Of a DNA stretch of 64,000 nt, positions 5,856 through 53,985 are shown in pieces. Origin of the DNA: an uncultured Gemmatimonadales bacterium. Its GTDB lineage: Bacteria; Gemmatimonadota; Gemmatimonadetes; Gemmatimonadales; GWC2-71-9. Each line of letters begins with the position of its first letter. The stretch's first letter is position 1. The stretch is from the NCBI GenBank assembly GCA_963825055.1, contig CAWGSK010000017.1, positions 23,236-87,235 of the forward strand, given 5' to 3'. A program made the position numbers and the translations under genes. Under the pieces are notes generated by a model, which was not told the DNA's origin, ran no database searches, and saw nothing but the letters and a program-made list of their open reading frames with translations.

Positions 5856-8749
5856 GCCCGGGATCGTTCCGCACGGCACGCCCCCACGGACAGCCGGAAC
5901 GGTCGCAGCCCCCCGGCGAACGAGCGGGCGGCGTGCCGATCGACAAGGGAACCCGAGCCCTCTACGCCACGGACGGTTCCAACTACCGCCAGGCGCCGCT
6001 GGGCGTGGTCCTTCCGCGTACGGTCGAGGACGTCATCGCGACGGTTCATGCGGCCCGCGAACACGGGGCGCCTGTCTGCCGCGGAGCGCGGCACCAGCCG
6101 GCGGGACAATACTGCAATACCGCCGTCGTCATGGACATGTCACGGTATCTCCACCATGTGCGGGAGATCGATCCCGCCCGTCACCTGGCGCGGGTCGAAC
6201 CCGGCACGATCCTGGACGACCTGCGCCGGCAGGCCCGGGCCCACGGTCTCACCTTCGGACCCGACCCGGCCACGCATACGCACTGTACGCTGGGCGGGAT
6301 GATCGGCAACAACTCCTGTGGTATCCATTCCGTGATGGCCGGCCGGACCGTGGACAACGTGGAGCGGCTGGACGTGCTCACGTGGCGGGGACTCCGCCTG
6401 GATGTCGGGCCGACAGGAGAGGAGGAGCTGAAGGCCATCATCGAGCAGGGTGGGGAGCGGGGGGAGATCTACCGCCGCCTGCGCGACCTGCGCGACCGGT
6501 ACGCCGGCCTCATCCGTGAGCGCTACCCGTCGATCCCGCGCCGGGTCTCGGGCTACAATCTGGACCAGCTGCTGCCGGAGAACGGGTTCCAGGTTGCCAG
6601 GGCACTCGTCGGCACGGAGGCGACCTGCGTCACGGTTCTCGAGGCCACGGTACGCCTGGTCCGGAACCCCGGCGCGCGCTCGCTGGTGGTCCTGGGCTAC
6701 CCCGACGTGTATCAGGCCGGCGATGCGGTGCCGTTCATCATGGAACACCAGCCGATCGGCCTGGAGGGGATTGATGACCGCCTGGTTGGCTACATGCGCT
6801 CCAAGGGCCTGCACCCCGATAATGTCGACCTCCTCCCCGACGGGCGGGGCTGGCTGCTGGTCGAGTTCGGTGGCGACGACAAGGAGGAGAGCGACGGTTT
6901 CGCCCGCCGCCTCATGCAGGCCCTCGAGGGGCGGGGAGATGCTCCCAGCATGAAGCTCTTCGACGATGAGCAGGCCGAGGCGAAGCTCTGGGAGGTCCGG
7001 GAATCGGGACTTGGCGCCACCGCCGTCGTGCCGGGCGAGGCACGGACCTGGCCGGGCTGGGAAGACGCGGCCGTGCCGCCCGAATCCGTTGGCGACTATC
7101 TGCGCGACTTCCGCGCCCTGCTGGACCGCTATGGCTATGAGTGCGCGCTCTACGGCCACTTCGGACAGGGCTGCATACACGTGCGGATCGATTTTGACCT
7201 CCGCACCCGGCCGGGCATCGACACCTACCTCGCGTTCATCGATGAGGCCGCCGATCTGGTCGTGTCGTATGGCGGGTCCCTCTCGGGAGAACACGGGGAC
7301 GGGCAGTCACGCGGCGCACTCCTGCCGAAAATGTTCGGCGAGGAACTCGTCGGAGCGTTCCGCGAATTCAAGGCGATCTGGGATCCCGATGGAATGATGA
7401 ACCCCGGCAAGGTGGTGGATCCCGCCGCCCCTGACGAACATCTCCGGCTGGGTACGGACTATGATCCCCACCCCGGTGACACCGCATTTGCCTGGCCGCA
7501 CGACAACGGAAGCTTCGCGCATGCGACCCTGCGATGCGTCGGGGTCGGGAAATGCCGCCGCCTGGAGAGTGACGGCACCATGTGCCCGAGCTACATGGTG
7601 ACCCGGGAGGAGCAGCACTCCACCCGCGGCCGGGCGCGCCTGCTCTTCGAGATGCTGCAGGGCGACGTGATCACGGACAAGTGGAAGGACCGGTCCGTGC
7701 ATGAAGCGCTCGACCTCTGCCTGGCGTGCAAGGGCTGCCTGCACGACTGTCCGGTGAACGTGGACATGGCGACCTACAAGGCCGAGTTCTACAGCCACTA
7801 TTACCGGCACCATCTGCGGCCACGGGACGCCTGGGCGTTCGGACTCATCCCCTACTGGGCCCGCCTGGCGGCGCCCATCGCCGGCTTCGCCAACGCCATC
7901 ACGCGTACCCCCGGCCTCTCGGCGGTCGCGCACTGGCTGGCCAACGTGGCGCCGGAGCGGAATATTCCCGCCTTCGCGAAGGAGCCCTTCACGAAATGGT
8001 TTCACCGCAGGGCGCGAAGAGAGGAGGGCGGCGACCCCGTCTTCCTCTATGCGGACACCTTCAACAACTATTTCCATCCCGACACGGCCCGGGCGGCCGT
8101 GCAGGTGCTCGAGACCGCCGGCTGCGAGGTGCATGTGCCCAGCCGGTGGCTCTGCTGCGGGCGTCCGCTCTACGAGTACGGCATGGTGGACCGCGCCCGA
8201 GGGCTGCTGCGCCGGACCCTGGACGGGCTGCGCGACCCGATCCGGGCGGGCATGCCTGTCGTCGTGCTGGAGCCAAGTTGCCTGACGACATTTCATGACG
8301 AGCTGCCCAATCTGTTCCCCAACGACGAAGACGCCCGCCGCCTCAGCCACCAGGCGGTCAGCCTCGGCGATTTCCTGGCCCAACGGGACTGGACGCCGCC
8401 GGCGCTGGACCGTGAGGCGCTGTTCCACGGCCACTGCCACCAGAAGGCGGTGCTGGGATACGAGGGAGAGCGGACGGTGCTGGACCGGATGGGAGTCGCG
8501 TGCACCGAGCCGGAGACCGGATGCTGCGGCATGGCGGGCGCGTTCGGGTTCACCCGGGGGAAGTACGGGGTGTCCGTCGCCGTCGGAGAGCGGCACCTGC
8601 TTCCGGCCATCCGGGAGGCACCCGGGAACCGGCTGGTTCTCGCCGACGGTTTCAGCTGCCGTGCGCAAATCAGCCAGTGTACGGGGCGGAAGGCGCTCCA
8701 TTTCGCCGAAGTGATCGGGATGGGGCTGGAGGCGGCGAGTAGCAAGTAG
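5852..8749 (+). CDS. FAD-linked oxidase with C-terminal Fe-S/CCG domains (YdiJ/D-lactate dehydrogenase-like)
   Basis: LYATDGSNY, TLGGMIGNNSCG, SGEHGDG, CVGVGKC, CLACKGCLHDCP, HGHCHQ, CCGMAGAFG; locally garbled around 6070-6110. Confidence 0.9.
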   Translation: MSPGSFRTARPHGQPERSQPPGERAGGVPIDKGTRALYATDGSNYRQAPLGVVLPRTVEDVIATVHAAREHGAPVCRGARHQPAGQYCNTAVVMDMSRYLHHVREIDPARHLARVEPGTILDDLRRQARAHGLTFGPDPATHTHCTLGGMIGNNSCGIHSVMAGRTVDNVERLDVLTWRGLRLDVGPTGEEELKAIIEQGGERGEIYRRLRDLRDRYAGLIRERYPSIPRRVSGYNLDQLLPENGFQVARALVGTEATCVTVLEATVRLVRNPGARSLVVLGYPDVYQAGDAVPFIMEHQPIGLEGIDDRLVGYMRSKGLHPDNVDLLPDGRGWLLVEFGGDDKEESDGFARRLMQALEGRGDAPSMKLFDDEQAEAKLWEVRESGLGATAVVPGEARTWPGWEDAAVPPESVGDYLRDFRALLDRYGYECALYGHFGQGCIHVRIDFDLRTRPGIDTYLAFIDEAADLVVSYGGSLSGEHGDGQSRGALLPKMFGEELVGAFREFKAIWDPDGMMNPGKVVDPAAPDEHLRLGTDYDPHPGDTAFAWPHDNGSFAHATLRCVGVGKCRRLESDGTMCPSYMVTREEQHSTRGRARLLFEMLQGDVITDKWKDRSVHEALDLCLACKGCLHDCPVNVDMATYKAEFYSHYYRHHLRPRDAWAFGLIPYWARLAAPIAGFANAITRTPGLSAVAHWLANVAPERNIPAFAKEPFTKWFHRRARREEGGDPVFLYADTFNNYFHPDTARAAVQVLETAGCEVHVPSRWLCCGRPLYEYGMVDRARGLLRRTLDGLRDPIRAGMPVVVLEPSCLTTFHDELPNLFPNDEDARRLSHQAVSLGDFLAQRDWTPPALDREALFHGHCHQKAVLGYEGERTVLDRMGVACTEPETGCCGMAGAFGFTRGKYGVSVAVGERHLLPAIREAPGNRLVLADGFSCRAQISQCTGRKALHFAEVIGMGLEAASSK

Positions 8750-8795
8750 CAAGTGGTAAGTGGTAGGTGGTAAGTGGTGAGTGATGAATAGTGAG
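8737..8795. repeat. Degenerate heptamer tandem tract (AAGTAGC/AAGTGGT)
   Basis: Read directly; contains the stop codon of the upstream gene. Confidence 0.75.
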
Positions 8796-8807
8796 AGGAG
8801 TGGCGAG

Positions 8808-9370: not shown

Positions 9371-9371
9371 C

Positions 9372-10076
9372 ATGCACATTTTCCCCGGCATCTCCGGCTA
9401 TGCCTATAAGGAGTGGAAGGGCTCGTTCTACCCCGCTGACCTAAAGGCAGACGGGATGCTCGGCTTCTACGCCACCCGCTTTCCCACCGTCGAGATCAAC
9501 AACACATTCTACCGGATGCCCAGGGAGTCCGTGGTCCTCAACTGGGCCGGACAGGTTCCCGACGGGTTCCGCTTTGTCCTGAAGGCCTCCCGGCGGATCA
9601 CGCACTTCGGGCGGCTCAAGAACGTCGAGAGCGAACTGGAGTATTTCCTGCGCGTCGCCTCCGCCCTCGGCCCGAAACGTGGCCCGACTCTCTTCCAGCT
9701 CCCTCCCAACCTGCCGGCGGACCTGCCGCGGCTCGAGGCTTTCCTGCGGCTCCTTCCGCCGCGCTGGGCGGCTGCCTTCGAGTTCCGGCACTCTTCCTGG
9801 GAAACGGCCGAGGTGGAGCAAGTGCTGGCTGACGCGGGGGCAGCCCTGGTGCATTCGGACGGCGAAGGGTTCTCGGATGCGCTCTCCTCCACGACGGACT
9901 GGGGCTATCTGCGGCTCCGCCAGCCCACGTACACGGACGAAGAACTCCGGGGCCTCGCGGCCGCGGTCCGCCGGCAGCCCTGGCGCGAAGCGTTCGTGTT
10001 CGTGAAGCATGAAGGGGAGGGGCCGGGGCTGGCGGTCCGGGTGCAGGAGGCGATGAGGGCCGCGGACAGTGACTAG
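9372..10076 (+). CDS. DUF72 domain protein
   Basis: GISGYAYKEWKGSFYP, VEINNTFYRMP, LFQLPP, FEFRHSSW, YLRLR. Confidence 0.93.
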   Translation: MHIFPGISGYAYKEWKGSFYPADLKADGMLGFYATRFPTVEINNTFYRMPRESVVLNWAGQVPDGFRFVLKASRRITHFGRLKNVESELEYFLRVASALGPKRGPTLFQLPPNLPADLPRLEAFLRLLPPRWAAAFEFRHSSWETAEVEQVLADAGAALVHSDGEGFSDALSSTTDWGYLRLRQPTYTDEELRGLAAAVRRQPWREAFVFVKHEGEGPGLAVRVQEAMRAADSD

Positions 10077-10145
10077 TGACTCGTGACTAGTGACCAGTGC
10101 CTGGAGTGACTCATCGCTGCCGACTGCCGACTGCCGACTGCCTAT
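10069..10145. repeat. Bipartite element (GTGACTA)n-core-(CTGCCGA)n
   Basis: Read directly; contains both convergent stop codons. Confidence 0.85.
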
Positions 10146-12300: not shown

Positions 12301-12387
12301 GGTATCGGGTATCGGGTATCGGGTATCGCGAAGGAGCTTTCCATCCAAGCACTAATCACTAATCACTAATCACTAGTCACTAGTCAC
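12301..12387. repeat. Bipartite element (GGTATCG)4-core-(CACTAAT/CACTAGT)n
   Basis: Reverse complement of the architecture at 34706 and 26856. Confidence 0.88.
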
Positions 12388-12416
12388 AGCTCACCAGTCC
12401 CTATGGAGCCACCCGC

Positions 12417-13655
12417 ATGTCACTTCGTCCGTGGGCCCCTGTCCGCCACTTCTTCCTCCCCCTGCTCGTGACCGCGGTGACACTTCCCTCCGCAGCACAG
12501 GTTGCGCCGTCCCCGGCCCTGGCCCATGCGAATGCCCTCCTCCAACAGGCCCCTGTCTTTGACGGGCACAACGACCTGGCCTGGGAGATCCGCATGCAGG
12601 AGGATCATCCGCTCGACGTTGCCGCATATGATCTCCGGACCCGGACGAAGGGACATACGGACCTGGCCCGTCTCAAGGCCGGTCACGTGGGGGCGCAGTT
12701 CTGGTCGGTGTATATCCCGGGCGAGGCAGCTGACAGCGGGTACGCCCGGATGCAGCTCGAGCAGATCGACATCGCCCTCCGCTTTATCGCCCGGTATCCG
12801 GAGCTGACGCTTGCGCTGACGGCGGACGACGTCGAGCGGGCCATGAAGGGCGGTCACATCGCCTCGCTGATCGGCATGGAGGGCGGCCATGCGATCGAGA
12901 ATTCGCTCGGCGCCCTGCGGGCATACTACGACCTTGGCGCCCGCTACATGACCCTGACCCATAACGTGACTTTGGACTGGGCCGACGCGGCCATGGACAC
13001 GGCGGCGCACGGCGGGCTGACCGACTTCGGACGTGACGTCGTCCGGGAGATGAACCGCCTCGGGATGCTGGTAGACCTGTCCCACACGTCCCCGGGCACC
13101 ATGAGCGATGTGCTCGACGTGAGCCAGGCACCGGTGATCTTCTCGCACAGCTCGGCCCGGGCGCTGGTGGATGTTCCCCGGAACGTCCCGGACTCGATCC
13201 TGGCCCGGATGCCGAAGAATGGCGGGATCGTCATGGTCACCTTCGTGCCGGACTTCGTGTCCCGGGCGTTCCATGACTCGATCGAGGTGTGGAGGCCCCA
13301 GCTCGAGGCGCGGCTTCAGGGTGTGACGGATTCGGCGGAGCGGGGCGGGATCCGCCGGGAGTTCATGCGCACCCATGAGCTGCCCCGGGCCACCATTGCC
13401 GACGTGGCGGACCACGTGGAGCACGTGCGGGATGTCGCCGGCATCGACCACGTAGGCCTGGGCGGCGACTTCGACGGAACCGGGAGCCTCCCCGAGGGGC
13501 TCGAGGACGTATCCACGTACCCGAACCTCTTCGCCGAGCTCATCCGGAGGGGGTGGAAGGACGCGGACCTGAAGAAACTCGCCAACGGCAACATGCTCCG
13601 GGTCATGCATGAGGCGGAGGCGGTGGCGGGGCGGATGAAGGGAAGCCAAGAGTGA
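12417..13655 (+). CDS. Membrane dipeptidase (peptidase M19)
   Basis: DGHNDL, GAQFWSVY, GMEGGH, YMTLTH, VDLSH, FSHS, GLGGDFDG. Confidence 0.95.
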   Translation: MSLRPWAPVRHFFLPLLVTAVTLPSAAQVAPSPALAHANALLQQAPVFDGHNDLAWEIRMQEDHPLDVAAYDLRTRTKGHTDLARLKAGHVGAQFWSVYIPGEAADSGYARMQLEQIDIALRFIARYPELTLALTADDVERAMKGGHIASLIGMEGGHAIENSLGALRAYYDLGARYMTLTHNVTLDWADAAMDTAAHGGLTDFGRDVVREMNRLGMLVDLSHTSPGTMSDVLDVSQAPVIFSHSSARALVDVPRNVPDSILARMPKNGGIVMVTFVPDFVSRAFHDSIEVWRPQLEARLQGVTDSAERGGIRREFMRTHELPRATIADVADHVEHVRDVAGIDHVGLGGDFDGTGSLPEGLEDVSTYPNLFAELIRRGWKDADLKKLANGNMLRVMHEAEAVAGRMKGSQE

Positions 13656-13757
13656 CAAGTGAGTAGTGATTAGTGGTTAGTGCTTCAGGGCAAGCGATAG
13701 TCGCGGAAGCGACCCTGGCTCAACGGCCAAGCACTATTCACTACTCACTAATCACTT
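13651..13757. repeat. Inverted heptamer arms (GTGAGTA/GTGATTA ... CACTACT/CACTAAT) around an AGTGCTT...AAGCACT core
   Basis: Read directly; supplies both convergent stops. Confidence 0.85.
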
Positions 13758-14743
13758 TTCCCAGTCGCCAACCCCAGCCTTACCGCCACAAACTCCGCCG
13801 CCGCATCCTCCGCCCACAGATGATGATGCCCTGGGGTCCCCTCCACGAATCCGACGTGGCCGCCTTCCTCCGGCATGAGCAGCGTGAGGCAGGGGTTCGC
13901 CGCGATTGCCTCCCGCGGGACGAGATCGCCCGGCGCCATCGGGTCATCTGCCGCGTGGATGAGCAGCGTCGGGACCCTGACCGCCGGCAGGTACGGACCG
14001 GCCGAGGAACGCGCGTAGTAGTCCGCGGCATCCCGGAATCCATGCAGAGGCGCCGTGAGGGCATCGTCGAAATCCCGGACGGTGCGGGCGGCCAGCACGC
14101 GCTCCATGTCCACGAGTTCCTCCAGCATGGCCCGCTTCGCCAGCACCTTCTGGCGAAGAGAGCGGAGGAAGAACCTGGCATAAATGCGTCCCGCCCCGCC
14201 ATCGATCCGTGCGGCACTCTCGGCGAGGTCGTAGGGAACGCTGATGGCCGCCGCCGCGGCCAGACCGGAGTCGGTCGACCCATGCTCACCCAGGTACTTG
14301 AGCAGCACGTTCCCACCCAGTGAAAATCCCACCCCCGCGAGCGGGCCGCCGTGGCTCTGCCGCAGGTGCTCGATGACGAGCCCGAGATCCTCCGTCTCGC
14401 CACTGTGGTAAAAGCGCGCGGTCCGGTTGGGGGCCCCGCCACAACTCCGGAAGTTGAGCCCAACCGACCGCATGCCGTGGGCCGACAGGGCCCTGGCGAG
14501 TTCTGCCGTGTAATCCGAGTGCGCGCTCCCCTCGAGGCCGTGCAGCGTCAGCACCAGCGGCGCGGTCGCGTCCGGCGGGCGCTCCCCGACCGTGGTGTAT
14601 TCCAGGACCAGCTCGTCGCCATCCGGCGTTTCCAGCCGTTCCGACCGGAAGGACACGTCCCCCGCGTGCCGCAGCAACCGACCGCCGATGGTCTGGGCGT
14701 GAGCTCCCGGCAGCCACCACGCCGGCGTGAAGCGGGTGGTCAT
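13748..14743 (-). CDS. YheT-family alpha/beta hydrolase
   Basis: GAHAQT, HGLEGS, FYHSGET, GFSLGGNVLLKYLGE, DDP, GGHVGF. Confidence 0.92.
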   Translation of the reverse strand: MTTRFTPAWWLPGAHAQTIGGRLLRHAGDVSFRSERLETPDGDELVLEYTTVGERPPDATAPLVLTLHGLEGSAHSDYTAELARALSAHGMRSVGLNFRSCGGAPNRTARFYHSGETEDLGLVIEHLRQSHGGPLAGVGFSLGGNVLLKYLGEHGSTDSGLAAAAAISVPYDLAESAARIDGGAGRIYARFFLRSLRQKVLAKRAMLEELVDMERVLAARTVRDFDDALTAPLHGFRDAADYYARSSAGPYLPAVRVPTLLIHAADDPMAPGDLVPREAIAANPCLTLLMPEEGGHVGFVEGTPGHHHLWAEDAAAEFVAVRLGLATGKSD

Positions 14744-22639: not shown

Positions 22640-22739
22640 GTGTGACGCAGGTTCCCGACGCCACGGGGCGTCTGAGAGCATACTGGAAAAGTCGGTTACC
22701 CCTGACCGATCGACTCGCCACCGAAGGGCCAAGCTGCAG

Positions 22740-25048: not shown

Positions 25049-25130
25049 GCCCTGGTGGTGAAACTGGTAGACACGCTATCTTGAGGGGGTAGTGCCGAAA
25101 GGCGTCGCGGTTCGAATCCGCGCCAGGGCA
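25049..25130 (+). tRNA. tRNA-Leu(GAG)
   Basis: GCCCTGG acceptor stem, CTATC-TTGAGGG-GGTAG anticodon arm, long variable arm, GGTTCGAATCC. Confidence 0.95.
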
Positions 25131-25136
25131 TGGCCG

Positions 25137-25208
25137 GCCACTGTAGCTCAGGGGTAGAGCTCTCGATTCGTAATCGAGCGGTCGTCGGTTCGAATCCGAC
25201 CAGTGGCT
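25137..25208 (+). tRNA. tRNA-Thr(CGT)
   Basis: GCCACTG acceptor stem, CTCGA-TTCGTAA-TCGAG anticodon arm, GGTTCGAATCC. Confidence 0.95.
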
Positions 25209-26627: not shown

Positions 26628-26855
26628 CCTCCCGGTGTGGTGCTACCGGGCCCGCGGTCGGCGGTCGCGGATGGTGCCGGAGGAGCAGGCGGCCAGGCCG
26701 TCCCGAAGGCACGGTAGCCGTTGCGACGTAGGGCGGACCGCGCGGGCACGCGGCGTCGCATCGCAGGAGCCGGAGCTCACCCGGGGGCGGTCCGGCTTCG
26801 GTTGCAGCATAGAAGGGGGGGAGGGAAGAGGGAAGGGGGAGGGAGTGGCGGTGCT

Positions 26856-26965
26856 GGTGACTGGTGACTAGTGACTGGTGACTAGTGACTGGTGACTGGT
26901 GACTAGTGTCTGGATGGGAAGTACCTTCCCGACTCCCGACTCCCGACTCCCGACTCCCGACTCCC
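26856..26965. repeat. Bipartite element (GTGACTR)n-core-(CTCCCGA)n
   Basis: Read directly. Confidence 0.88.
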
Positions 26966-26974
26966 GTCTTTCCG

Positions 26975-33277: not shown

Positions 33278-34705
33278 ATGAGCCATCCTGCGGCAGTCCT
33301 CGACCTCGACCTGGAAACCATGCGGCGCCTCGGGGCCCGCGTGGTGGATATCGTTGCCCGTCACCACGCGACGCTTCGCGAACAGCGGGTGCACGCGCCG
33401 GAATCGCGCCGGGCGGTCGCCGGGATCATCCGCGGCACGGCTCCCGAGCAACCCGGCGACCCTGAGGCGCTGCTCTCCTGGCTTACCGACGCGGTGCTGC
33501 GGCGGAGTTCCCGGGAACCGCATCCGGGCTTCCTGGCGTACGTTCCGAGCTGCCCGACGTTCCCGGCGATCGCGGGTGACTGGCTCGCGACCGGGTTCAA
33601 TCCGTTCGCGGGCGTCTGGCCGGTGGCGCCGGGCCCCAACCAGCTCGAGTTGCTCGTCATGGACTGGTTTCGCACCTGGCTTGGCATGCCCGAGGGCACC
33701 TCCGGCCTCTTCACGTCCGGAGGATCCTCGGCCACCATGACGGCGGTCGTGGCGGCGCGGCATGCCGCGCTCCAGGGGGACGACGCCGCCATCAGCCGCC
33801 TCGTCCTGTACACGTCCGACCAGGCGCATTCGTCCGTCGCGCGGGCCGCATGGATCGCGGGAATTCCGCGCGACAACGTGCGGTCGATCGGGACCGACGA
33901 TGGCTACCGCCTCCGGCCCGACCTGCTGCTGCAGGCTGTTGCCCGGGACCGCGCCGCCGGACTGCGGCCGTTCATTGTGGTGGCGAACGCCGGCACCACG
34001 AACACCGGCGCGGTGGATCCGCTCCACGAGGTGGGTGAGTTCTGCCGGGGGGAGGATCTGTGGTATCACGTGGACGCCGCGTACGGCGGTTTCGCCACGC
34101 TGGTGCCGGGGGGAGGCGACCTCATGCGCGGCCTCGCGCTGGCGGACACGGTAACCCTCGACCCGCACAAGTGGCTGTTCGTTCCGTTCGAGTGCGGCTG
34201 CCTGCTGGCCCGCGACCCGGCGCGGCTGGCCGATGCGTTCCGGATCTACCCCGAATATCTCAAGGATGTCGAGTCGGACGGCGACGAGGTGAACTTCGCC
34301 GACTGGGGGGCGCAGCTCACCCGTTACGCCCGGGTGTTCAAGGTCTGGCTCGGCGTCAGCTACTTCGGCATGTCCGCCATCCGCGCCGGCATCCAGCACG
34401 GGATCGACCTGGCCCGCCGGGTGGAACAGCGGGTGCTGGCGGCTGCGGACCTGGAGCTCCTCTCGCCGGCGCAACTCGGTATCGCCTGCTTCCGGGTGCA
34501 CCCTCCCGGCCTGGACGATCCGGCCGCCCTTGACCAGCTCAACGAGCGCGTGAACGCCGCAATCAACACCGGCGGACGGTTCTTCATCTCCTCTACCCGA
34601 CTTCGCGATGCCTTCGCCCTCAGGATCTGTGCGCTCGGATTCCGGACGACGGTGGAGGATGTGGATGAGCTGGTGGAGGCAGTGAGGGAGGCGGGATGTG
34701 GTTAG
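33278..34705 (+). CDS. PLP-dependent group II amino-acid decarboxylase
   Basis: SGGSSAT, SDQAHSS, AGTTNTGAVD, HVDAAYGG, DPHKW. Confidence 0.93.
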   Translation: MSHPAAVLDLDLETMRRLGARVVDIVARHHATLREQRVHAPESRRAVAGIIRGTAPEQPGDPEALLSWLTDAVLRRSSREPHPGFLAYVPSCPTFPAIAGDWLATGFNPFAGVWPVAPGPNQLELLVMDWFRTWLGMPEGTSGLFTSGGSSATMTAVVAARHAALQGDDAAISRLVLYTSDQAHSSVARAAWIAGIPRDNVRSIGTDDGYRLRPDLLLQAVARDRAAGLRPFIVVANAGTTNTGAVDPLHEVGEFCRGEDLWYHVDAAYGGFATLVPGGGDLMRGLALADTVTLDPHKWLFVPFECGCLLARDPARLADAFRIYPEYLKDVESDGDEVNFADWGAQLTRYARVFKVWLGVSYFGMSAIRAGIQHGIDLARRVEQRVLAAADLELLSPAQLGIACFRVHPPGLDDPAALDQLNERVNAAINTGGRFFISSTRLRDAFALRICALGFRTTVEDVDELVEAVREAGCG

Positions 34706-34855
34706 GGACTAGTGACTGGTGATTAGTGACTAGTGACTAGTGATTAGTGATTAGTGCTTCAGGGTGAGTATCTTCGCGGAACCCGACACCCGACACCCGA
34801 CACCCGACACCCGACACCCGACACCCGACACCCGACACCCGACACCCGACACCCC
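34706..34855. repeat. Bipartite element (GTGAYTA)n-core-(ACCCGAC)~10
   Basis: Read directly; right arm abuts the next start codon. Confidence 0.9.
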
Positions 34856-35307: not shown

Positions 35308-36257
35308 ACAGGGCGCTGCTTCTGGTTCTGGTGGCAGGACTACTGGCCGCCTGTGGAGACCGTCCGGACCCGATGCCGGACGAGCCGCCGGTTACTGCCG
35401 CCTTGCCGGATACGGGAGCCGTGCGCGCCCTCATGCGGCACGTGGACTACCTCGTGGCGCCCGGCATCGTGATGCGGATCGAGCGGCTCCGCGGCGCCCT
35501 TCGGCCGGTGGGGAATGCCCCCGTTTCGTTCGATGACCCCCGGTCCTTCGTGCTGCACACGGACGCGGCGGCGATGAGCCTGCGGTGGGATGACTTGAGC
35601 CGGCTGCTCAATGACTTCGTCTTCAACTACCAGGGTTCGTCCCTCAGCGGCCTGGAGGTCAGGCCGGAGAACGGGAAGCTCCGGCAGAGCGGCACTCTCC
35701 ACAAGATTCTCCCCATCCCCTTCAGCATCCTGGCCGAGGTTTCCCTCAGCGATTCCGGGCTGATTCGCCTGCACCCGGTGTCCATCCGTATCGTGGGCAT
35801 ACCGGCCGGGGGGCTGCTCGAGTTCCTCGGTGTTGAACTCGACGGCCTGGTCAGGAACAACCGGGCTCACGGAGTTCGCGTCGTGGATAACGACCTTCTT
35901 CTGGATCCTGCGGGATTGCTACCGCCACCCCGGATCGAGGGACGGCTGACCGGCCTGACTATCGGCGGCGACGCCCTGTTCCAGATCTTTGGCCCGCCGG
36001 ATACCGTCCCCGTTCACGCACCGGTCGGCACCCCCGACAGCATCGGGAACTACCTGTTCTTTCGGGAGGGAGCGCTCAGTTTCGGCAAGCTCATCATGCG
36101 GCCGGCGGACATGCTGATCGTGGACCAGGACCAGTCAACCCCGTTTGTATTCTACCTGAACCGCTATCGCGACCAGCTGGTACGCGGTTATCACCGCACC
36201 CTGCCGGACGACGGGTTGGTGGTGTATATGCCGGACTATGAGGGGAAGCGGGAGTAG
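35304..36257 (+). CDS. Hypothetical lipoprotein
   Basis: GTGA overlap with upstream stop; lipobox LAAC. Confidence 0.75.
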
Positions 36258-36490
36258 GGAGTAGGGAGTAGGGAGCAGGCAGTGGGCAGTAGGAAGTAGG
36301 GAGTAGGGAGTAGGGAGTAGGCAGTAGGCAGTGGGCAGTAGGGAGTGGGGAGAGGAGGGAGACTGCTTCCGCCGATACCAACTACCCGATTCCGGACACT
36401 CGCTTCCAGGGCAATCGAGCTTGCGCGGACGATTGCCGACTGCCGATTCCCCATTGCCTGGCTCTACTGCCTACTGCCTACTCCCTACTC
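36250..36490. repeat. Bipartite element (GAGTAGG/GCAGTAG)n-core-(CCGATTG/CCTACTG)n
   Basis: Read directly; contains both convergent stops. Confidence 0.85.
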
Positions 36491-36947
36491 CCTGTTCCAG
36501 CACCACATACCTCCCCACATAACTCTCCTGCGGGATGATCTGGTCGAAGCTCGAGCGGTCGGGCAGGAGGCGGGTGCGCTGGATGATCCAGTTGTCGACG
36601 GTGGCGGCGTCGTGGAGGGCAGGCGGTATGCGGGAGGTCACCAGGCGGGTCGTGTCCGCGTTCCCGGTGACGACGGTCAGCCCGGTCTTGACCTCGCCTT
36701 CCCAGACGCAGAGCACGAAGGCCAGGACGGGGCAGCGCTGGTCGTCGAAGACGGAATCGAGGCGGAACCGAAGGCCGGCCCCGGTAATGGCGGCGGTTTC
36801 GCCGACACGGAGCTCGAACGTGTCGCCGATCGCGGCAACCACCGCTGCGTCGCCGTTGTTGCCATCCGGCCCCGTGACGGGGGACTCGTGATGGCAGGCG
36901 AGCAGAGGCATGAGGAGGGCAAGGATACGGATATGTCGCACGGTCAA
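36471..36947 (-). CDS. Small lipoprotein, paralog of 34858-35307
   Basis: Lipobox LLAC; DTFELRVG, DQRCPVLAFVLCVWEG. Confidence 0.75.
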   Translation of the reverse strand: MTVRHIRILALLMPLLACHHESPVTGPDGNNGDAAVVAAIGDTFELRVGETAAITGAGLRFRLDSVFDDQRCPVLAFVLCVWEGEVKTGLTVVTGNADTTRLVTSRIPPALHDAATVDNWIIQRTRLLPDRSSFDQIIPQESYVGRYVVLEQGVGSRQ

Positions 36948-37017
36948 CTCCCGTTCAGGTCAGAAAAGGATGTCCTGATCCACTGACCCCGGGAAGGCGG
37001 GGGTGGTCACGGGGGGC

Positions 37018-37294
37018 CGGGTATGGGGGATGGGATATGGGGGATGGGGGATGGGGGATCAGGGATCGTTGAGTCGTTGAGTGGTTGAGTCGTTAGTGGT
37101 TTCGCCGGTCGGTCTCGATCCCCCGCGACGGGACTGAAGTCCCTGCTCGGCACGTCGTCGCCCGCCGGCGATATTCGGACCGCCTGACCGCCTGACCGCC
37201 TGACCGCCTGACCGCCTGACCGCCTGACCGCCTGACCGCCTGACCGCCTGACCGCCTGACCGCCTGACCGCCTGACCGCCTGACCGCCTGACCG
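37018..37294. repeat. G-rich arms (GGGGGAT)n/(GTTGAGTC)n, palindromic core GGGACTGAAGTCCC, perfect (GACCGCCT)~14
   Basis: Read directly. Confidence 0.9.
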
Positions 37295-37295
37295 C

Positions 37296-38522: not shown

Positions 38523-38636
38523 GTGGGCACCATCAGAACTGAACGAGATGATGACACAGGGGGAGTGAAGTGCAAGATGGTGATGGAGGAAGAGTTACGC
38601 AATTGGCAGGTATGAGACGGTGTATGGAAACACGAC

Positions 38637-38746
38637 AGTAGTGAGTAGTGAGTAGTGAGTAGTGATTGGTGATTAGTGATTAGTGATTAGTGCTTCAGGG
38701 CCGGGATCCATGCTCTGAAGCACTACTCACTACTCACTACTCACTG
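38637..38746. repeat. Inverted heptamer arms (GTGAGTA/GTGATTA)n-AGTGCTTCAG...CTGAAGCACT-(ACTCACT)n
   Basis: Read directly; long hairpin potential; supplies the NPP stop. Confidence 0.9.
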
Positions 38747-39981
38747 CCTCTCAGCATCACCCTGACCGAGTCGAGGCTCCCGTCGTTTCTGGCCGGGGTG
38801 AGGCCCAGGACATGGGCCATCAGGTCATACAGATGAATGTTCGCCACCGGCGGGGTCTTCACACCGGTGCGGAAATCGGGTCCGGCGGCGATAAGGATGC
38901 CGTGCATGCTCGCGAGGGCCGGGTCGAAGCCGTGGTTCCCGCCGTTGAATCGCTCGGGGGACGCCGTCGCGCGCTGGCGCGTGGTGATGCTCCAGCCCTC
39001 GTCGGCCAGGCCGATGATCGGGGCCACGCGCGGGTTGTCCCGGTAGTGAAATCGTTCCGGCAACTCCGCCTTGCGCCAGACCTGCATGTGGCCCGCCCGG
39101 CTGAGTCCACGGTACACGCTGTCCTCCATGCCGGGGTGGGGCCGGATGGCGAGCACCGGCGACCAGTCGATGATATCTGCCGTGCGCAGGTCGATGTAGT
39201 CGTCCAGGATGACGAGCCGGTTCGCGCTGGTGGCCGCCATGCCGTGATCGGAGACGATGACGATGTCGGTGCGGTCGAGCACGCCCCGCGTCCTGAGGCC
39301 GTCAACCAGCTGTCCCACGGCCGCATCCACCCGTGCAATGGCCGAGTCTACCTGGGGCGATTCCGGGCCGGAATCGTGGCCGGCGCCATCCACGTCGCTC
39401 ATGTAGAGCGTGAGGAACGTGGGGTGCTGCGGGGCGGGGAGGTCCACCCAGTCGAGGACCTGCTTCACCCGGGCGCTGTTCGACACCCGGCCGTCATACT
39501 TGCGGGTGAAGGACGGGCGGACACCCTCGATGGTCGCTTCGGAACCGGGCCAGAACATGGTTCCGGCATGCTGGCCCTGCTTCTCGGCGGTGATCCAGAG
39601 CGGCTCGCCACCCCACCAGCGCCCATCGGTGACTGCCGCAGCATCGCTCATCCGGAACCATGCGTCGAAGCCGGGGTCGTAGATCGTATTGGCAACTATG
39701 CCGTGGTCACCCGGGTAGAGCCCGGTGACGATGGTGTAATGGTTGGGGAAAGTCTTGCTGGGAAACGACGGGATCAGCGCCTGTGCCTGAACCCCGCGGG
39801 CGGCCAGCTCGCGCAGGTGCACCGCCGCGGGCCGGTCCAGGTAGTCCCAGCGAAAGCCGTCGAGTGAGACCAGGATGAGGGCATACGGTGGTTCCGACGG
39901 AACTGGTGGCGCGGCCGGACGGCCCCCGCACGCGGGCAGGAGCAGGAGGACGACGAGAAGGAGCGATAGGAGGCGGCGCAT
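38737..39981 (-). CDS. Nucleotide pyrophosphatase/phosphodiesterase (alkaline phosphatase superfamily) lipoprotein
   Basis: SLDGFRWDY, SKTFPNHYTIVTGLYP, DGAGH, SDHGM, GNHGFD. Confidence 0.95.
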   Translation of the reverse strand: MRRLLSLLLVVLLLLPACGGRPAAPPVPSEPPYALILVSLDGFRWDYLDRPAAVHLRELAARGVQAQALIPSFPSKTFPNHYTIVTGLYPGDHGIVANTIYDPGFDAWFRMSDAAAVTDGRWWGGEPLWITAEKQGQHAGTMFWPGSEATIEGVRPSFTRKYDGRVSNSARVKQVLDWVDLPAPQHPTFLTLYMSDVDGAGHDSGPESPQVDSAIARVDAAVGQLVDGLRTRGVLDRTDIVIVSDHGMAATSANRLVILDDYIDLRTADIIDWSPVLAIRPHPGMEDSVYRGLSRAGHMQVWRKAELPERFHYRDNPRVAPIIGLADEGWSITTRQRATASPERFNGGNHGFDPALASMHGILIAAGPDFRTGVKTPPVANIHLYDLMAHVLGLTPARNDGSLDSVRVMLRGSE

Positions 39982-40016
39982 GGGGTTCCCGGGTCAGGGC
40001 AGAGCGGGAAAGATAG

Positions 40017-40250
40017 ACGGGGATCGGGGATCGGGAATCGGGCCCGCCTGACCGTGCTGATCACGCGGCTGAAGCCGCCTAGCGTTCGCTCGCGGCCGAG
40101 GAGCGGCGCCGCCGCTCCTGTGGGCCACATCGCTCACGTCCTGGTATTTCCTCCGGTCACTGCTCGGCTCGCCGTCGCCTGCGGGCGACGGTTATTTGTC
40201 GACCGCCCTGACCGCCCTGACCGCCCTGTCCGCCCTGTCCGCCTGCCCGC
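40017..40250. repeat. (GGGGATC)n arm, palindrome-rich core, (GACCGCCCT)n arm
   Basis: Core hairpins AGGAGCGGCG-C-CGCCGCTCCT and CCGTCGCC-TGCG-GGCGACGG. Confidence 0.7.
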
Positions 40251-40252
40251 CC

Positions 40253-41408
40253 TCACATCGGATACGCGTATCGCTCCAGCCACTGCAGGCCGTCGGCATC
40301 GGTCCGGGCGAGGTATACGCTTGTCCTGCCGAACGCCACGAGGCGCCGGTCGGCCGGCAGGATGACCCGTCGCAGGAGCACGCCGTTCCTGCCGAAGACA
40401 TCGTACGTGAGCGGCTCGCCCGCCGGACCGTAGCGCTCGACCCAGCCCTCGCCAGCGGGGCTCACCGACACGCCGCCGGCGCGGAAGGCCGGCTTGCTGT
40501 CGGGCCATTCGTAGCCGCTCAGGTCTTCGTCCCGCGGACGGCCACCGCGTCCGAGCGCGATGCTCCGGTTGCCGTTGTTGACTTCCACGGACACACTGAG
40601 CCCCGTCGAGGCGAGCTGGTCGACCCAGGCCTGCTTGTCCTTCTCACGGATCGGGACCGGCTTCCAGGCGACAGGCGTCCCACGCACCGTGCGCCCGTCT
40701 CGCAGGAGCCATTCGACGTGATAGTCGGCCGCGCGCACCAGGAAGACCGCGCCATCGTCGCCGACCGCCCAGCCATCGGATGGGCTGTACGGTACCGCAC
40801 GGAACTGCTGGCCCCGATTGTTCGGACCGCCGGTGGTGGTGACCTTTGTTGCGGGAAGGCCGACGCGGGCCACGGAATCGAACGAGGTCGCGCCGGGCGT
40901 CCACCGGACGACGGCCGCGCTGTCGCCGGTGGACGGTCCGCCGGGCCGGAAGTAGACACGGCCATTGCGGTCCGTGGCCTGCGGGAGGACGATGGTGAGC
41001 CCGCCCGGCCCGGCGCCGTCCATGGTGAGGCGGGTCGTGCGTCCCACGGCGCCGGCAGGGCCGAGGATGGACAACCGGGCATTCCCGAGGTCGACCAGCA
41101 GCGTCGAGTCACCGGGCCAGGCGAACAGCAGGTCGGGCAGCCGGTACTCGCCAGGCCCGCGGCCCTTCCGCCCGATCGGGCGTCATGCTGCCCTTGCCGA
41201 GGTCCACCACCGAGACCTGCTCGGCGATGCCGTCGCTCACCAGCACCCGGCCGCTGGGGAGTTCACGAATCCCGGAAATGGCGTCGAAGGATTTGTTCAC
41301 ACTGGCGGTCGGCGCGGTGAGCCGCACGGTCTTCGGGGCCGCCTGGGCGGCGAGGGCAGCGGGCACGGCGGCGAACAGCAGTACCACGATCGGACGATAG
41401 GACGGCAT
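40253..41408 (-). CDS. Secreted 6-bladed beta-propeller-like protein, frameshift near 41179
   Basis: Removing one base joins MPSYRPIVV...GKGSMTP to IGRKGRGPGEYRLP...; ends DADGLQWLERY. Confidence 0.75.
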
Positions 41409-41471
41409 CCGGTCTCCGGGGTGGGGGTCTGGGCTTTTGGATGCGTGAGGGGAGGGGAGGGTTGCAGGGGT

Positions 41472-41765
41472 GTCGAGGAGTCGAGGAGTCGAGGAGTCGA
41501 GGAGTCGAGGAGTCGCGGGGGCGATCCAGAGTGTTGTCATCCTGAGGGCCGTCAAGGCCCGAAGGATCTCGTCGGCCGCCCATCGAACTGCACCGGGCTT
41601 GCAAAGGCGTTCGATCCCGGGTTGGAAGATCCCTCGCTGGACGCTCGGGATGACACCGCTTCCTGACGCTACGCCGACCGCCCTGTTCTCGACCGCCCTG
41701 TTCCCGACCGCCCTGTTCCCGTCCGCCTGTCCGCCTGCCCGCCTGCCCGCCTGCCCGCCTGCCTA
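41472..41765. repeat. (GTCGAGGA)5 arm, REP-like inverted pair, C-rich (CCGCCTGC)n arm
   Basis: TGTCATCCTGAG...CGAAGGATCT (about 41537-41568) pairs with AGATCCCTCG...CTCGGGATGACA (about 41628-41655). Confidence 0.85.
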
Positions 41766-48172: not shown

Positions 48173-48250
48173 GGGCGGACAGGGCGGACAGGCGGACAGG
48201 GCGGACAGGCGGACAGGCGGACAGGCGGACAGGCGGACAGGCGGACAGGC
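48173..48250. repeat. (GGCGGACA)n tract
   Basis: Read directly. Confidence 0.9.
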
Positions 48251-48365
48251 CGACGTTCGAACTGTTGCGCGAGTGCCCTATCAAGACTGGCAGCTTGTAA
48301 GCCTCTGTCTCACCCATAAATACTAAAGCCGTTCGGTATTCGAGCTACCCCGACCGGTCCCAGTC

Positions 48366-50140: not shown

Positions 50141-50155
50141 GCCGGGCGCCCTCCG

Positions 50156-51619: not shown

Positions 51620-51686
51620 CGGGTCGGGAAGGGACACCGGAAGGACCATCTTGCGCGCGGGCCGGGGGATGCCATACTGATCCCTC

Positions 51687-52646
51687 ATGCCCCGCCTTCC
51701 CATCGACCATCGCCAGTTCTTCAAGGATCTCGTCTTGATTCTCGGACTGCCCGCCGCTGTGCTGGGCGGCCTCCTGGTGTGGTGGGCGCCGTGGGACGTG
51801 GCTGCCCCCCAACCCTGGAACGCGCCCCTGTCAACAAACGTGTTCGAGACGTTGCGGGGGAGTTGGGGCTGGACCGGAGACTCGCCCTCGACCTGCGCCC
51901 TGGATCCGCACCAGATCAGCTTCTCGGCGGACTACACGACCATGAGCATCGCCTCGCGCGAACCGTGGACCGACAGCGGTGGTGTCGAGCACGCGGCCGC
52001 CATCTACGACATCCTGGAAGTGGAGTCCAATCGCATCCGCGGGGTCATCCAGGGCGAATTCCGCCGGACGGCGGCGGGTGAGCCGGTGGTCTGGGACCTT
52101 GTCCTGATGGACTCCAATACCTACCGGTGGCATCGGACCGACTGGCGCGTGGGATCGTACACCGACCCGGTAGAGCGGTGTCGAGGGCCGCTCGAGGTAC
52201 TGGACGACGCGGCCAGCGTCCGGGTGGAGCCAGGCGCGTTCTCCACGGCCTCCATGCCCGTACACCGGACGCCGACGAGGGCGGCCTGCCCGCCCGGGGC
52301 CAGGGCGGAAGCGATCCTCGACGAAGCCATCGTCTATCCGACGATCGGCACGGACACTGTCTATCCGAAGGATTCCCTGCGGGTTCAGCCTTACTGGAGC
52401 GGGTCGGTTTCCTACATTCCGGCCGAACGGCCTGAGGGCACCCCGCGGCCGGGGACCGCCGTCGTCCGGTTTGTGGTCAATCCGGAGGGCCTGGTCCCGT
52501 CATGTCTCGTCACGGTCGTCGAGGCGAGCAACGAGTATGACGCCGAGGACGCGCGGACCCTGCTGTCACTCGCGCGATACGTGCCGGCTCAGCGCGACGG
52601 CAGGGCCGTCTGGGTACGGATCCAGGACACGGTGCGTTCCCGGTAG
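51687..52646 (+). CDS. Membrane-anchored protein with C-terminal TonB_C-like domain
   Basis: N-terminal TM; VVRFVVNPEG...ARYVPAQRDGRAV. Confidence 0.65.
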   Translation: MPRLPIDHRQFFKDLVLILGLPAAVLGGLLVWWAPWDVAAPQPWNAPLSTNVFETLRGSWGWTGDSPSTCALDPHQISFSADYTTMSIASREPWTDSGGVEHAAAIYDILEVESNRIRGVIQGEFRRTAAGEPVVWDLVLMDSNTYRWHRTDWRVGSYTDPVERCRGPLEVLDDAASVRVEPGAFSTASMPVHRTPTRAACPPGARAEAILDEAIVYPTIGTDTVYPKDSLRVQPYWSGSVSYIPAERPEGTPRPGTAVVRFVVNPEGLVPSCLVTVVEASNEYDAEDARTLLSLARYVPAQRDGRAVWVRIQDTVRSR

Positions 52647-52654
52647 CCGTGCCC

Positions 52655-52800
52655 GCCCTGACCGTCCTGTCCGTCCTGTCCGCCTGTCCGCCACTGACCG
52701 CCCCGACCGCCCTGTTCACGACCGCCCTGTCCCCGACCGCCCTGTCCCCGACCCCCTGACCGCCTTGACCGCCCGTCCGCCCGTCCGCCCGTCCGCCTGC
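52655..52800. repeat. C-rich 8-9 bp degenerate tandem tract (GACCGCCCT/GTCCGCCC)
   Basis: Read directly. Confidence 0.85.
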
Positions 52801-52842
52801 CCACCTGTTTTATACTCCGGTGTCTTCTCTCCGGGGACTGCC

Positions 52843-53508
52843 GTGTTCGTCGGTCATTATGGTGTGAGTTTCGCCGCCCGCCGCGTGTGGCCGCGGGTGC
52901 CGCTCTGGGTCTGGTTCATCGCGGTTCAGTTGCTGGACATCCTGTGGGCGCCGTTCATCCTTCTCGGCGTTGAGCGCGTACGGATTGTTCCGGGTATCAC
53001 CGCCTCCAACCCGCTCGATCTCTACTACATGCCCTGGACCCACAGCCTCGTGGCCGCGCTCGGGTGGTCGGTGGCGGCGATGCTGGCGTGGCGCGCGGTC
53101 CGGAACCGGGAAGGCTGGACGCCGGCCACGTTCGGGATCGGGCTCGCGGTCTTTTCACACTGGGTGCTCGACTTCGTGGTCCATCGTCCGGACCTTCCCC
53201 TGTACGGCAACACCGCCAAGGTCGGGCTGGGACTGTGGAATCACCCTGCGCTCGCCTTTTCCCTGGAGGCAGGGCTCCTCGTGGCAGGCGCGTTGTGGTA
53301 CCTCGGCGCGCGGACAGTCCGGCCCGTTCCGGTCCTCATCTTTGCGGTGGTCATGCTGGCGGTACAGGGGGTGGTGTTCTTCGGCGCCCCGCCGGCGACC
53401 CCCGCCATGGCCGCGATGATGGCGTTCGGGTCATACGCGCTGTTCGCGTTCCTGGCGTACTTGCTGGAGCACCGATACAGACAGCCAGCGGTGGCAGCGT
53501 CCGCCTGA
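52843..53508 (+). CDS. Membrane-bound metal-dependent hydrolase-like protein
   Basis: MFVGH, QLLD, PWTHSL, SHWVLDFVVH, GLGLWN. Confidence 0.8.
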   Translation: MFVGHYGVSFAARRVWPRVPLWVWFIAVQLLDILWAPFILLGVERVRIVPGITASNPLDLYYMPWTHSLVAALGWSVAAMLAWRAVRNREGWTPATFGIGLAVFSHWVLDFVVHRPDLPLYGNTAKVGLGLWNHPALAFSLEAGLLVAGALWYLGARTVRPVPVLIFAVVMLAVQGVVFFGAPPATPAMAAMMAFGSYALFAFLAYLLEHRYRQPAVAASA

Positions 53509-53985
53509 CCGCCCTGTCCGCCCTGTCCGTCCTGTCCGCCCATCCGCCTGTCCGCCCTGACCGCCTGACCGTCTGACCGCCTGACTGTCCTGACCGCCCT
53601 GTCCGCCTGACCGCCCTGTCCGCCTGACCGCCCTGACCGCCTGACCGCCCTGACCGCCCTGACCGCCCTGTCCGCCTGACCGCCCTGACCGCCTCTGTAC
53701 CGCTCGCTGTCGCGACTCCGTGACCGCCTGACCGCCTGACCGCCTGTCACGCCTGACCGCCTGACCGCCCTGTCCGCCTGACCGCCTGACCGCCCTGTCC
53801 GCCCCTTTCGCGACTGAGAGTCGCGACTCGGCCGATCTGTCACTCAAGTGACGTTGGCAGGCCAGTCTCCAGATGGCTCTATTGGTGACCGCCCTGACCG
53901 CCCTGACCGCCCTGTCCGCCCTGTCCGTCCTGTCCGTCCTGTCCGTCCTGTCATCGTCCGCCTGTCCGCCCGACCGCCTGTCCGC
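53505..53985. repeat. Long (GACCGCCT/GACCGCCCT/GTCCGCCT)n tract with TCGCGACT-GAG-AGTCGCGA palindrome
   Basis: Read directly; about 480 bp between convergent genes. Confidence 0.9.

Follow-up and report, generated by a model that had tools for sequence, protein, structure and literature searches.

A 64,000-nucleotide stretch of an uncultured Gemmatimonadales bacterium (assembly GCA_963825055.1, contig CAWGSK010000017.1, positions 23,236 to 87,235; henceforth called the window) carries intergenic tracts of 7–9-base tandem units, in which a G-rich array (G arm), a core, and a C-rich array (C arm) typically follow one another. These tracts are best read as gene-less elements of a repeat system that is dispersed over the genome and pairs with genes for a four-helix-bundle (FHB) protein (PF05635). 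We put the probability at roughly 0.55 that the FHB proteins specify this system, each likely binding its own repeat unit and likely driving arm spread. Both binding and movement are inferences; what is observed is the pairing of genes and units, the polarity of the arms, their position at stop codons, the presence or absence of cassettes (an FHB gene together with its arms) between relatives, and slippage. The repeat geometry, the build of a gene between inverted ends, and the logic of one gene for one repeat are already published, and the new part is the link of FHB genes to dispersed arrays, for which no paper was found in the literature outside subscription papers and supplements, the heptamers of Coxiella intervening sequences being the only related case.

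Tracts in the window were called with Tandem Repeats Finder and an array finder of our own. An earlier note, made from the letters of this DNA, had counted about 17 intergenic tracts of fixed polarity, and 17 tracts of 7–9-base units were indeed obtained, 12 two-armed and 5 one-armed (Table 1; the tract at 57491 lies beyond the range of that note). All 12 two-armed tracts were in the order G arm, core, C arm. A hexamer run at 38107-38138 was not counted, as it lies within a predicted gene. The four junctions quoted earlier were present within 1–2 bases, with the AGTG junction starting at 10096, 26905, and 34753 on the plus strand and at 12353 on the minus strand, and AGTGCTTCAGGG was found at 13679, 34753, and 38689. 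No Rfam family lay over any window tract at gathering thresholds, and the window holds no rRNA and no FHB gene.

The same arrays occur throughout the assembly (3.53 Mb, 68% GC, 87% complete, 6% contamination), which is fragmentary. Identical elements on the contig pairs C6/C12, C13/C27, C12/C21, C12/C25, and C5/C29 suggest duplicated assembly stretches, and genome-wide counts are therefore slightly inflated. Genes were called with our own hexamer model (3071 genes), so that start-codon positions are approximate. At a strict score, 283, 128, and 78 arrays of period 7, 8, and 9, respectively, were found (489 in total) vs none in a codon-block shuffle, and a looser score (11) gave 784 arrays vs 13 in the shuffle control. 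It is thereby confirmed that the window tracts and the genome-wide arrays are real and not due to chance, in line with the non-random origin proposed earlier. Sequencing support was obtained from public contigs of three runs of one study and not from raw reads; the source sample may itself be among the three, and the comparison was made for tracts outside 36200-42500. These contigs reproduced tracts, one of them spanning 13166-14515 with no difference, and showed gains and losses of 7-base units at 10116 and 10076. Unit insertions and deletions were thus seen in the contigs, and no clean loss of a whole element was listed there.

Arm polarity was strongly biased. Among adjacent arms at most 150 bp apart (n = 105), 82 pairs were ordered G then C and one C then G, the remainder being GG (9) or CC (13). 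Arms were located in 376 intergenic regions, of which 206 held one polarity only and 170 held both; the latter comprised 165 regions with plain G then C, four mixed regions, and one with C then G. The G-then-C order was present in all four gene orientations (41, 58, 17, and 49), and the polarity claimed for the window accordingly extends to the genome. The rule holds for the single arm, whose G-rich strand leads from the adjoining host gene into the spacer, the arm being nearer to that gene in 506 of 636 cases. The distance to a stop codon was tight (median 3 bp, n = 357) and that to a start codon loose (median 66 bp, n = 279); on the sense strand, G-rich arms predominated after stops (247 vs 34) and C-rich arms before starts (96 vs 9). 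As units lacking a stop codon also begin at host stops (84 of 156 within 15 bp), this position does not merely result from arrays creating stops.

The two arms of one element are frequently unlike each other. Arm units were at most one mismatch apart in 63 of 169 two-armed elements (shuffle mean 17.5, maximum 32) and differed more in 106. Of 152 elements, 128 fold with at least 10 arm–arm pairs, and arms paired better with their own than with a random partner in 117 of 169 cases. The agreement of neighbouring units of an array at variable positions was 0.74 (expected 0.36) and 0.63 (expected 0.11), and the fixed positions of a unit were constant across about 100 loci per family; both are expected if slippage amplifies single units under sequence constraint. 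No age gradient was detected along the arrays (outer-to-inner mismatches 9.3% vs 9.1%). Composite arms were layered in a consistent order (ATCGGG before GTTGAGT, 6 vs 0). G3 tracts are lacking in most units (AGTGANT, AACGGTG, GTTGAGTC, GGCGGACA), and only some families carry them.

Eight FHB genes were identified in the genome, all over the Pfam cut-off; a broader profile added none, and the two proteins scanned against TIGR02436 scored 111-120 bits. Each of the eight has a G arm upstream and an inverted C arm downstream, and each cassette lies between protein-coding genes, none in an rRNA gene. The eight genes fall into about seven unit families, with the closest paralogues having a family in common. 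Units of these resident genes covered 35.5% (exact) and 67.7% (at most one mismatch) of 696 arms, compared with a mean of 0.3% and 13% (maximum 1.4% and 30%) for 300 random sets of eight FHB loci from relatives, none of which reached the observed values. The association with four-helix-bundle genes, put forward in the earlier note, was therefore borne out. The interiors of the cassettes match only one another, and their inner junctions recur on gene-less arms (AGTG–CTT). One divergent FHB gene (L008, G000:C7:175804-176025) has an N-terminal part without a profile match; its unit family, AACGGTG, still comprises about 50-60 arrays.

FHB matches were present in 74 of 81 genomes of the order. The best 129 of 283 matches outside this genome were fetched and, together with the eight own loci, gave 137 loci, of which 82 had both arms, 31 one, and 24 none; at offset control positions both arms were called in 5 of 260. 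An inverted match was found in 66 of the 82 two-armed loci, the upstream unit was G-rich in 75 of 86, and the right neighbour of the FHB gene was convergent in 63 of 77 callable loci. In a quick protein tree (123 columns; unit-length counts read from the printed tree), 8–10-mers made up 34 of 36 units in one FHB clade (SH-aLRT 97), whereas 7-mers made up 58 of 64 elsewhere. Arrays were additionally sampled in 100 kb of each of eight genomes. Four genomes without an FHB match contained 0, 0, 2, and 2 arrays (4 in 400 kb), and four genomes with 4-13 FHB genes contained 15, 11, 8, and 11 (45 in 400 kb; G then C 8, C then G 0), of which 10, 1, 3, and 8, respectively, matched the genome's own fetched units, part of each genome's FHB loci having been fetched.

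For a comparison of filled and empty sites, the flanks of relatives' cassettes were mapped onto this genome, which placed 18 of the 129 loci in syntenic pairs at 15 distinct sites, some pairings being loose. At these 15 sites, this genome was empty in nine (several gaps of 1-4 bp), held gene-less arms in five, and an FHB gene in one, the background being arms at 372 of 3036 junctions (12%); two of the five gene-less-arm sites carry a single arm and an additional gene within the gap. The two clearest pairs show a 3-4-bp gap here and a whole cassette in the relative, beginning just after the stop codon. Visual inspection of these two filled/empty pairs, at 61-74% protein identity, revealed no evident target duplication, a distance too large to decide, and no transposase with ends in common with the arms was found. 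One junction, presumably between ychF and the gene of a proton-pumping pyrophosphatase, carries FHB cassettes in two families (L001, L124, L125) with different units and with proteins from different parts of the tree, which suggests a hotspot used more than once.

On the premise that arrays pair with FHB genes, the published GGGAATC repeat was expected to flank an FHB gene as well. Named genomes were scanned for (GGGAATC)5, giving at least 122 loci, and 25 of those genomes were searched for PF05635, of which 21 had a match over the cut-off, one had a match below it, and three had none. In the nine genomes with a single FHB gene, the arms were GGGAATC or one mismatch away in six and consisted of other units in three. 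Five of these six are Xanthomonadales with the gene at one common site, and the sixth is an Acidobacteriota with a different upstream neighbour. We take the Xanthomonadales cassettes (L336, L337, L338, L341, L335, L352) to lie between accB- and accC-like genes, and the Acidobacteriota cassette (L340) presumably precedes a biotin-carboxylase-like gene. In that set, inverted 7–8-mer arms likewise flank FHB genes of Cyanobacteria, Planctomycetota, Elusimicrobia, and Balneolales; overall, 67 new FHB loci had both arms in 35 cases, one in 18, and none in 14. Searching loci across phyla with the FHB alignment revealed no conserved seed. No FHB gene was located within 600 bp of a fivefold GGGAATC array at any of the 122 loci, some of which are short.

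Most cores are short and unique. The junction of about 27 bp described in the earlier note is a real, recurrent family, here delimited as a 21-bp core linking an AGTG-type arm to a CGA-type arm. It is one lineage-specific subfamily and not a general core, with 14 copies (12 distinct; 18 fuzzy hits, of which four without arms were dropped) and no occurrence in the 80 relatives searched. A fixed inner junction, CTT, characterises the AGTG family (48 of 123 cases), as anticipated from the proposal of conserved junctions with variable units, and this AGTG–CTT pattern was found in 48 copies here and in none of 60 other genomes of the phylum. A second palindrome family is common to four cores. That the tracts are cargo-less copies held as far as the gene-less form is concerned and was not supported for deletion remnants: the 372 arm-bearing intergenic regions contained no FHB fragment at the protein or DNA level beyond intact cassettes (seven of which are among these regions, the eighth having been predicted as a gene). 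Other repetitive extragenic palindromic (REP) sequences occupy those cores that are not unique in most cases.

Several other elements occupy the same brackets. Doublets of a GTCATC...GATGAC REP were accompanied by arms in 18 of 18 regions holding them vs about 31% of spacers of at least 100 bp, and they are related to palindromes around a GIY-YIG gene, itself arm-bracketed. The latter (L044, G000:C3:91110-91648) is nested in a GTCATC REP doublet within G and C arms, and gene-less doublets are nested in arms about a dozen times elsewhere, once at window 41516-41720. A Y1 (RAYT-like) gene (L041, G000:C3:21452-21799) is flanked by several REP palindromes, a copy of which interrupts the longest window tract at 53805-53853; a second Y1 gene (L042, G000:C20:60213-60473) is followed by a roughly 90-bp tandem repeat array. 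Y1 and GIY-YIG genes were considered as sources of the arm-making enzyme and rejected, as they have palindromes of their own, which are nested in arms; they may be helpers. A 67-aa glycine-rich, membrane-protein-like open reading frame (ORF) was observed between matched AGTG-family arms (G000:C3:86270-86490). GxxExxY genes, which the earlier note had also placed between such arms, do not belong here: the two copies (L009, C13:290993-291337; L010, C30:97640-97984) have no 7–9-mer arms and instead carry their own inverted CACAGAG/CACGGAG-like repeats with about 9-base spacing, and none of five regions with CACAGAG-like repeats had 7–9-mer arms. They constitute a separate, second gene-plus-repeat system.

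Heptamer short tandemly repeated repetitive (STRR) sequences occur in cyanobacteria, where small dispersed repeats (SDR) of 21-27 nt are embedded in heptamer arrays, a build that the 21-bp core family described here resembles; the core here joins two different arm families. The GGGAATC and GGGGA(C/T)T repeats of Xanthomonas and Nostoc (Rehm et al. 2015, PMC4692102) are likewise intergenic 7-mer arrays of about four units, whose G-rich strand is either the coding strand, within 50 bp of a stop, or the non-coding strand upstream, as here, and they resemble the present tracts in forming convergent inverted pairs and being under-represented between divergent genes. As Rehm et al. describe the same geometry, the anatomy of the tracts is of a known kind. 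The stop/start position rule of such oriented repeats was observed here; G3 tracts able to form quadruplexes, as in the GGGNATC-type unit, are confined to some families of this genome. Xanthomonas and Nostoc have one unit family per genome, compared with about ten here, including 8- and 9-mers. Those repeats were read as G-quadruplexes with no FHB link in the available text (PMC4692102), whereas a Xanthomonadales FHB gene was found here to be flanked by GGGAATC. TAACTGA repeats of Beggiatoaceae, cyanobacteria, and Bacteroidetes (PMC4679880) are oriented intergenic heptamer arrays as well, often just upstream of starts; the binding candidates named are S1, Csp, and Csr proteins, and the terms 'four helix', 'intervening', and '23S' do not appear in the available part of that paper.

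Two further known systems carry genes. In ORF-bearing 23S rRNA intervening sequences (IVS; S23p; Coxiella, Leptospira; PMC4990558), a PF05635/TIGR02436 protein is encoded between complementary ends, with variable-number tandem heptamers upstream of the ORF, and both the ends and the heptamers are found in the eight cassettes here. The IVS, however, lie in an rRNA gene, whereas the present cassettes lie between protein genes, often antisense to the preceding neighbour, and are far outnumbered by gene-less arms, unlike the IVS. The RAYT/REPIN system (PMC3337134) consists of a short single-copy gene with its own inverted repeat, one paralogue per repeat family, and gene-less doublets and singlets genome-wide, all of which is seen here. 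Its repeat is a palindromic REP and its gene an HUH tyrosine transposase, whereas tandem 7–10-mer arrays and an all-helical protein are found here; moreover, doublets here often mix families, true REPs are nested passengers, and the arms flank FHB genes and not the two Y1 genes, which have palindromes of their own. The FHB system works like RAYT/REPIN without being a member of that family. FHB genes have also been noted inside cas loci (PMC3936711).

The predicted model of one FHB protein (pLDDT 96.8) matched the pentameric XCC0516 (2GSC) with a TM score of 0.93 and Avd of diversity-generating retroelements (DGR; PDB 4DWL, 8UB7) with 0.83-0.85, and BT_0352 matched too. FHB proteins thus have the fold of Avd; they score below the Avd model cut-off (29.9 vs 80 bits) and the 87%-complete assembly has no RVT_1 match, which speaks against a DGR. 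In the DGR structure, a single RNA stem-loop is contacted by all five Avd subunits, and its flipped bases lodge in the crevices between them (10.1101/2023.10.23.563531). Given the Avd-like fold and this mode of RNA contact, it is plausible that an FHB protein binds one repeat unit per subunit.

In this reading, each FHB gene sits between inverted arrays of its own 7–10-base unit, and most arrays of the genome use those units. The protein, a predicted pentamer like XCC0516 and Avd, would bind the single-stranded G-rich repeat with about one unit per subunit, which fits arrays of 4-5 units, and would hold a hairpin-forming cassette at both its ends. Insertion of the whole cassette or of an arm just behind a stop, with the G-rich strand pointing away from the host gene, would be the work of host recombination or repair and not of an enzyme encoded by the element. 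Two arms flanking an intergenic stretch would result in the G–core–C order, matched if they stem from one family and mixed if from two, and mixed and composite arms may record repeated visits by different families. Slippage would resize the arrays, and REPs would accumulate in the same bracketed safe space.

Several observations weigh against this reading. No catalytic site is recognised in the FHB protein and no enzyme is tied to the arms. Whole FHB subclades (G031, G068, and the L151/L156/L161/L165 group), one with very short branches, are without detectable arms and are possibly domesticated forms. Unit letters track protein identity only weakly between sites (rho -0.14; nearest neighbours at most one edit apart in 11 of 100 vs 1.9% background), and four tests for a residue-to-base code on 60-108 7-mer units left no column that survives permutation and multiple testing: for the best columns, 3-25 of 150 permutations reached the observed score, uncorrected for the many columns scanned, and the co-occurrence of G with Ser in the 'FLxIA' position (one fit, 20 of 24) is no more than suggestive, with 25 of 150 permutations as good. 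Own-unit matches were limited to 1 of 11 arrays in G080 and 3 of 8 in G041, and arrays of G094 matched the units of the present genome almost as well as their own (8 vs 10 of 15). Three of the four FHB-less genomes belong to one genus and are therefore not independent, and neither are the five Xanthomonadales cases at their common site. In this 87%-complete assembly, no resident FHB unit corresponds to 225 of the 696 arms, the main group among them being about 100 of RNNRTCG type. The lack of FHB fragments in arm-bearing regions belongs here too, and the bracketed GIY-YIG gene and the 18 of 18 bracketed REP regions imply that the brackets are not exclusive to FHB genes.

Among the rival explanations, we consider it unlikely that the arrays are selected as RNA-level or structural signals (regulator sites, G-quadruplexes, or insulating stems), with FHB proteins as non-mobile, sequence-specific readers that autoregulate via their own flanks. 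The strict position after stops and before starts, the folding of most elements, and the preference of arms for their own partner would suit such signals, and regulatory and G-quadruplex roles have been proposed for similar repeats (PMC4679880, PMC4692102), although PMC4692102 reports that no regulatory role was found. Arm pairing gave no sign of RNA-level selection via G-U pairs, as it showed no strand bias (in tandem cases, the sense strand was the more stable one 39 times and the less stable one 50 times; p = 0.29), and this lack of a sense-strand pairing advantage weakens the RNA-stem explanation. The signal reading is further opposed by the 106 of 169 arm pairs that differ by at least two bases per unit, the many units without G runs, the lineage-specific array families (48 copies here, none in 60 genomes), and the presence or absence of cassettes at tight operon junctions. 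Host slippage independent of any element and filtered for harmless orientation, with FHB genes, GIY-YIG genes, and REPs as passengers landing in existing arrays, appears improbable to us. It accounts for the unit-number polymorphism, at least three REP kinds and a GIY-YIG gene inside arms, the small host-like gene that is arm-bracketed on contig C3, cores without FHB remnants, and the third of arms that match no resident FHB unit; slippage alone leaves unexplained about ten recurrent unit families with fixed letters at dozens of loci, eight FHB genes in about seven families with matched arms, the period by FHB clade, and the array-poor FHB-less relatives among those sampled.

The earlier note had suggested a non-autonomous mobile or repeat-synthesising system with its enzyme encoded elsewhere, and no reverse transcriptase (RVT_1) was found in the 87%-complete assembly. 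A telomerase- or terminal-transferase-like tailing of both 3' ends of a break with G-rich units, rejoined around filler, with FHB as an accessory as Avd is for the DGR reverse transcriptase, would predict the polarity (165 vs 1) as the geometry of a head-to-head fusion of two G-tailed ends, and would suit the often mismatched or composite arms with their ordered layering, the diverse cores, and the structural homology of FHB and Avd. Besides the missing RVT_1 match, no template RNA was identified, no decay gradient runs along the arrays, and breaks are not expected to favour stop codons, which together make this tailing a poor candidate. An assembly artefact or chance low-complexity sequence, finally, would find room in a fragmentary, 6% contaminated assembly with some duplicated stretches, but shuffles gave 0-13 arrays, contigs of other runs reproduced tracts, and the same build recurs in relatives and distant phyla; it is already refuted for the tracts covered by public contigs and its overall probability is negligible.

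The window tracts are compiled in Table 1. Elsewhere in the window, a c-di-GMP-I riboswitch (RF01051, 52.9 bits) was found at 5044-5120 on the minus strand, and two large tandem proteins (2068 and 744 aa, 16433-24974, plus strand) with many Ig-like/filamin/invasin-type repeats are probable surface adhesins. Three tRNA genes are located at 25049-25208 and 57401-57474, a short G arm adjoining the tRNA gene at 57401.

Table 1. Tandem-repeat tracts of the window (position 1 is its first letter)
Position	Strand	Arms	Description
8738..8787	+	G	AAGTAGC/AAGTGGT 7-mers, starting over the FAD-oxidase stop codon; unit family of resident FHB L002
9240..9367		G and C	G arm AGGGAGT (FHB L007 family), unique core, degenerate pyrimidine C arm; PCC-domain and DUF72 genes either side
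10068..10142	+	G and C	(AGTGACT)n G arm containing the DUF72 stop codon, shortened 21-bp-type core from 10096, (CTGCCGA)n C arm; unit-number variants in public contigs
12301..12403	-	G and C	21-bp-core element: (AGTGAYT)n arm with AGTG–CTTGG as its junction (12353), then core and (CGATACC)n arm; flanking genes divergent
13651..13756		G and C	Two facing AGTG-family arms, AGTG–CTT inner junction in both (13679 +, 13735 -), unique core; convergent stop codons either side
26821..26966	+	G and C	Purine run followed by (RGTGACT)n arm and 21-bp core (from 26905); (TCCCGAC)n arm, its end close to the stop of the M1 peptidase gene
34703..34854	+	G and C	(AGTGAYT)n arm from the stop codon of the decarboxylase gene; core of the 21-bp type, shorter by one base, from 34753; (ACCCGAC)n arm
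36250..36493		G and C	Long G arm of (GGGAGTA)n, unique core of 111 bp that includes additional degenerate units, C arm of (CTACTCC)n
37012..37295		G and C	Composite G arm (GGGGATG 7-mer, then GTTGAGTC 8-mer), core with GGGACTGAAGTCCC palindrome common to 3 other cores, perfect (GACCGCCT)x14.8 C arm
38637..38745		G and C	Fully palindromic: (AGTAGTG)n, short core between the AGTG–CTTCAGGG junction (38689) and its mirror image (38724), (CACTACT)n
40018..40253		G and C	(GGGGATC)n G arm, 158-bp core related to GCTGAAGCC palindrome family, 8/9-mer (GACCGCCCT)n C arm
41472..41763		G and C	(GTCGAGGA)n G arm, 205-bp core (41516-41720) with GTCATC...GATGAC REP doublet, related to palindromes around the genome's GIY-YIG gene, 8-mer C arm
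48173..48254	+	G	GGCGGACA/GGGCGGACA units, family of FHB L004/L005
50747..50918		G and C	Mixed 8-mer G arm (GTTGAGTC-type, FHB L006 family), short core, (CTGCCCGA/CCGCCCGA)n C arm
52646..52808	-	C	8/9/15-mer units, G-rich strand on minus, FHB L004/L005 family
53499..53987	-	C	Longest tract, mosaic of 8- and 9-mers after the stop of the amidohydrolase gene; at 53805-53853 it is broken by one copy of the REP that lies beside the Y1 (RAYT-like) gene of contig C3
57491..57510	+	G	Short GTCGAAG arm adjoining a tRNA gene

To our knowledge, the large FHB family has solved structures and no function. The over-representation of heptamers in bacteria is likewise an open question (PMC4692102, PMC4679880). 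With about seven FHB paralogues paired with seven repeat families and hundreds of target sites, both questions join in one binding question with built-in specificity controls. Tentatively, and with somewhat less than even odds, FHB proteins may be programmable single-strand repeat readers, each paralogue setting the length and letters of its own 7–10-base unit, which run a widespread mobile system without a catalytic protein of its own and seed oriented arrays behind stops; this system could be the common source of STRR, GGGAATC, and TAACTGA repeats and of ORF-bearing rRNA intervening sequences. If the pairing reflects recognition, the FHB family would be a natural library of small pentameric single-strand binders of different unit lengths, and possibly a mobile system that moves without a nuclease or polymerase of its own.

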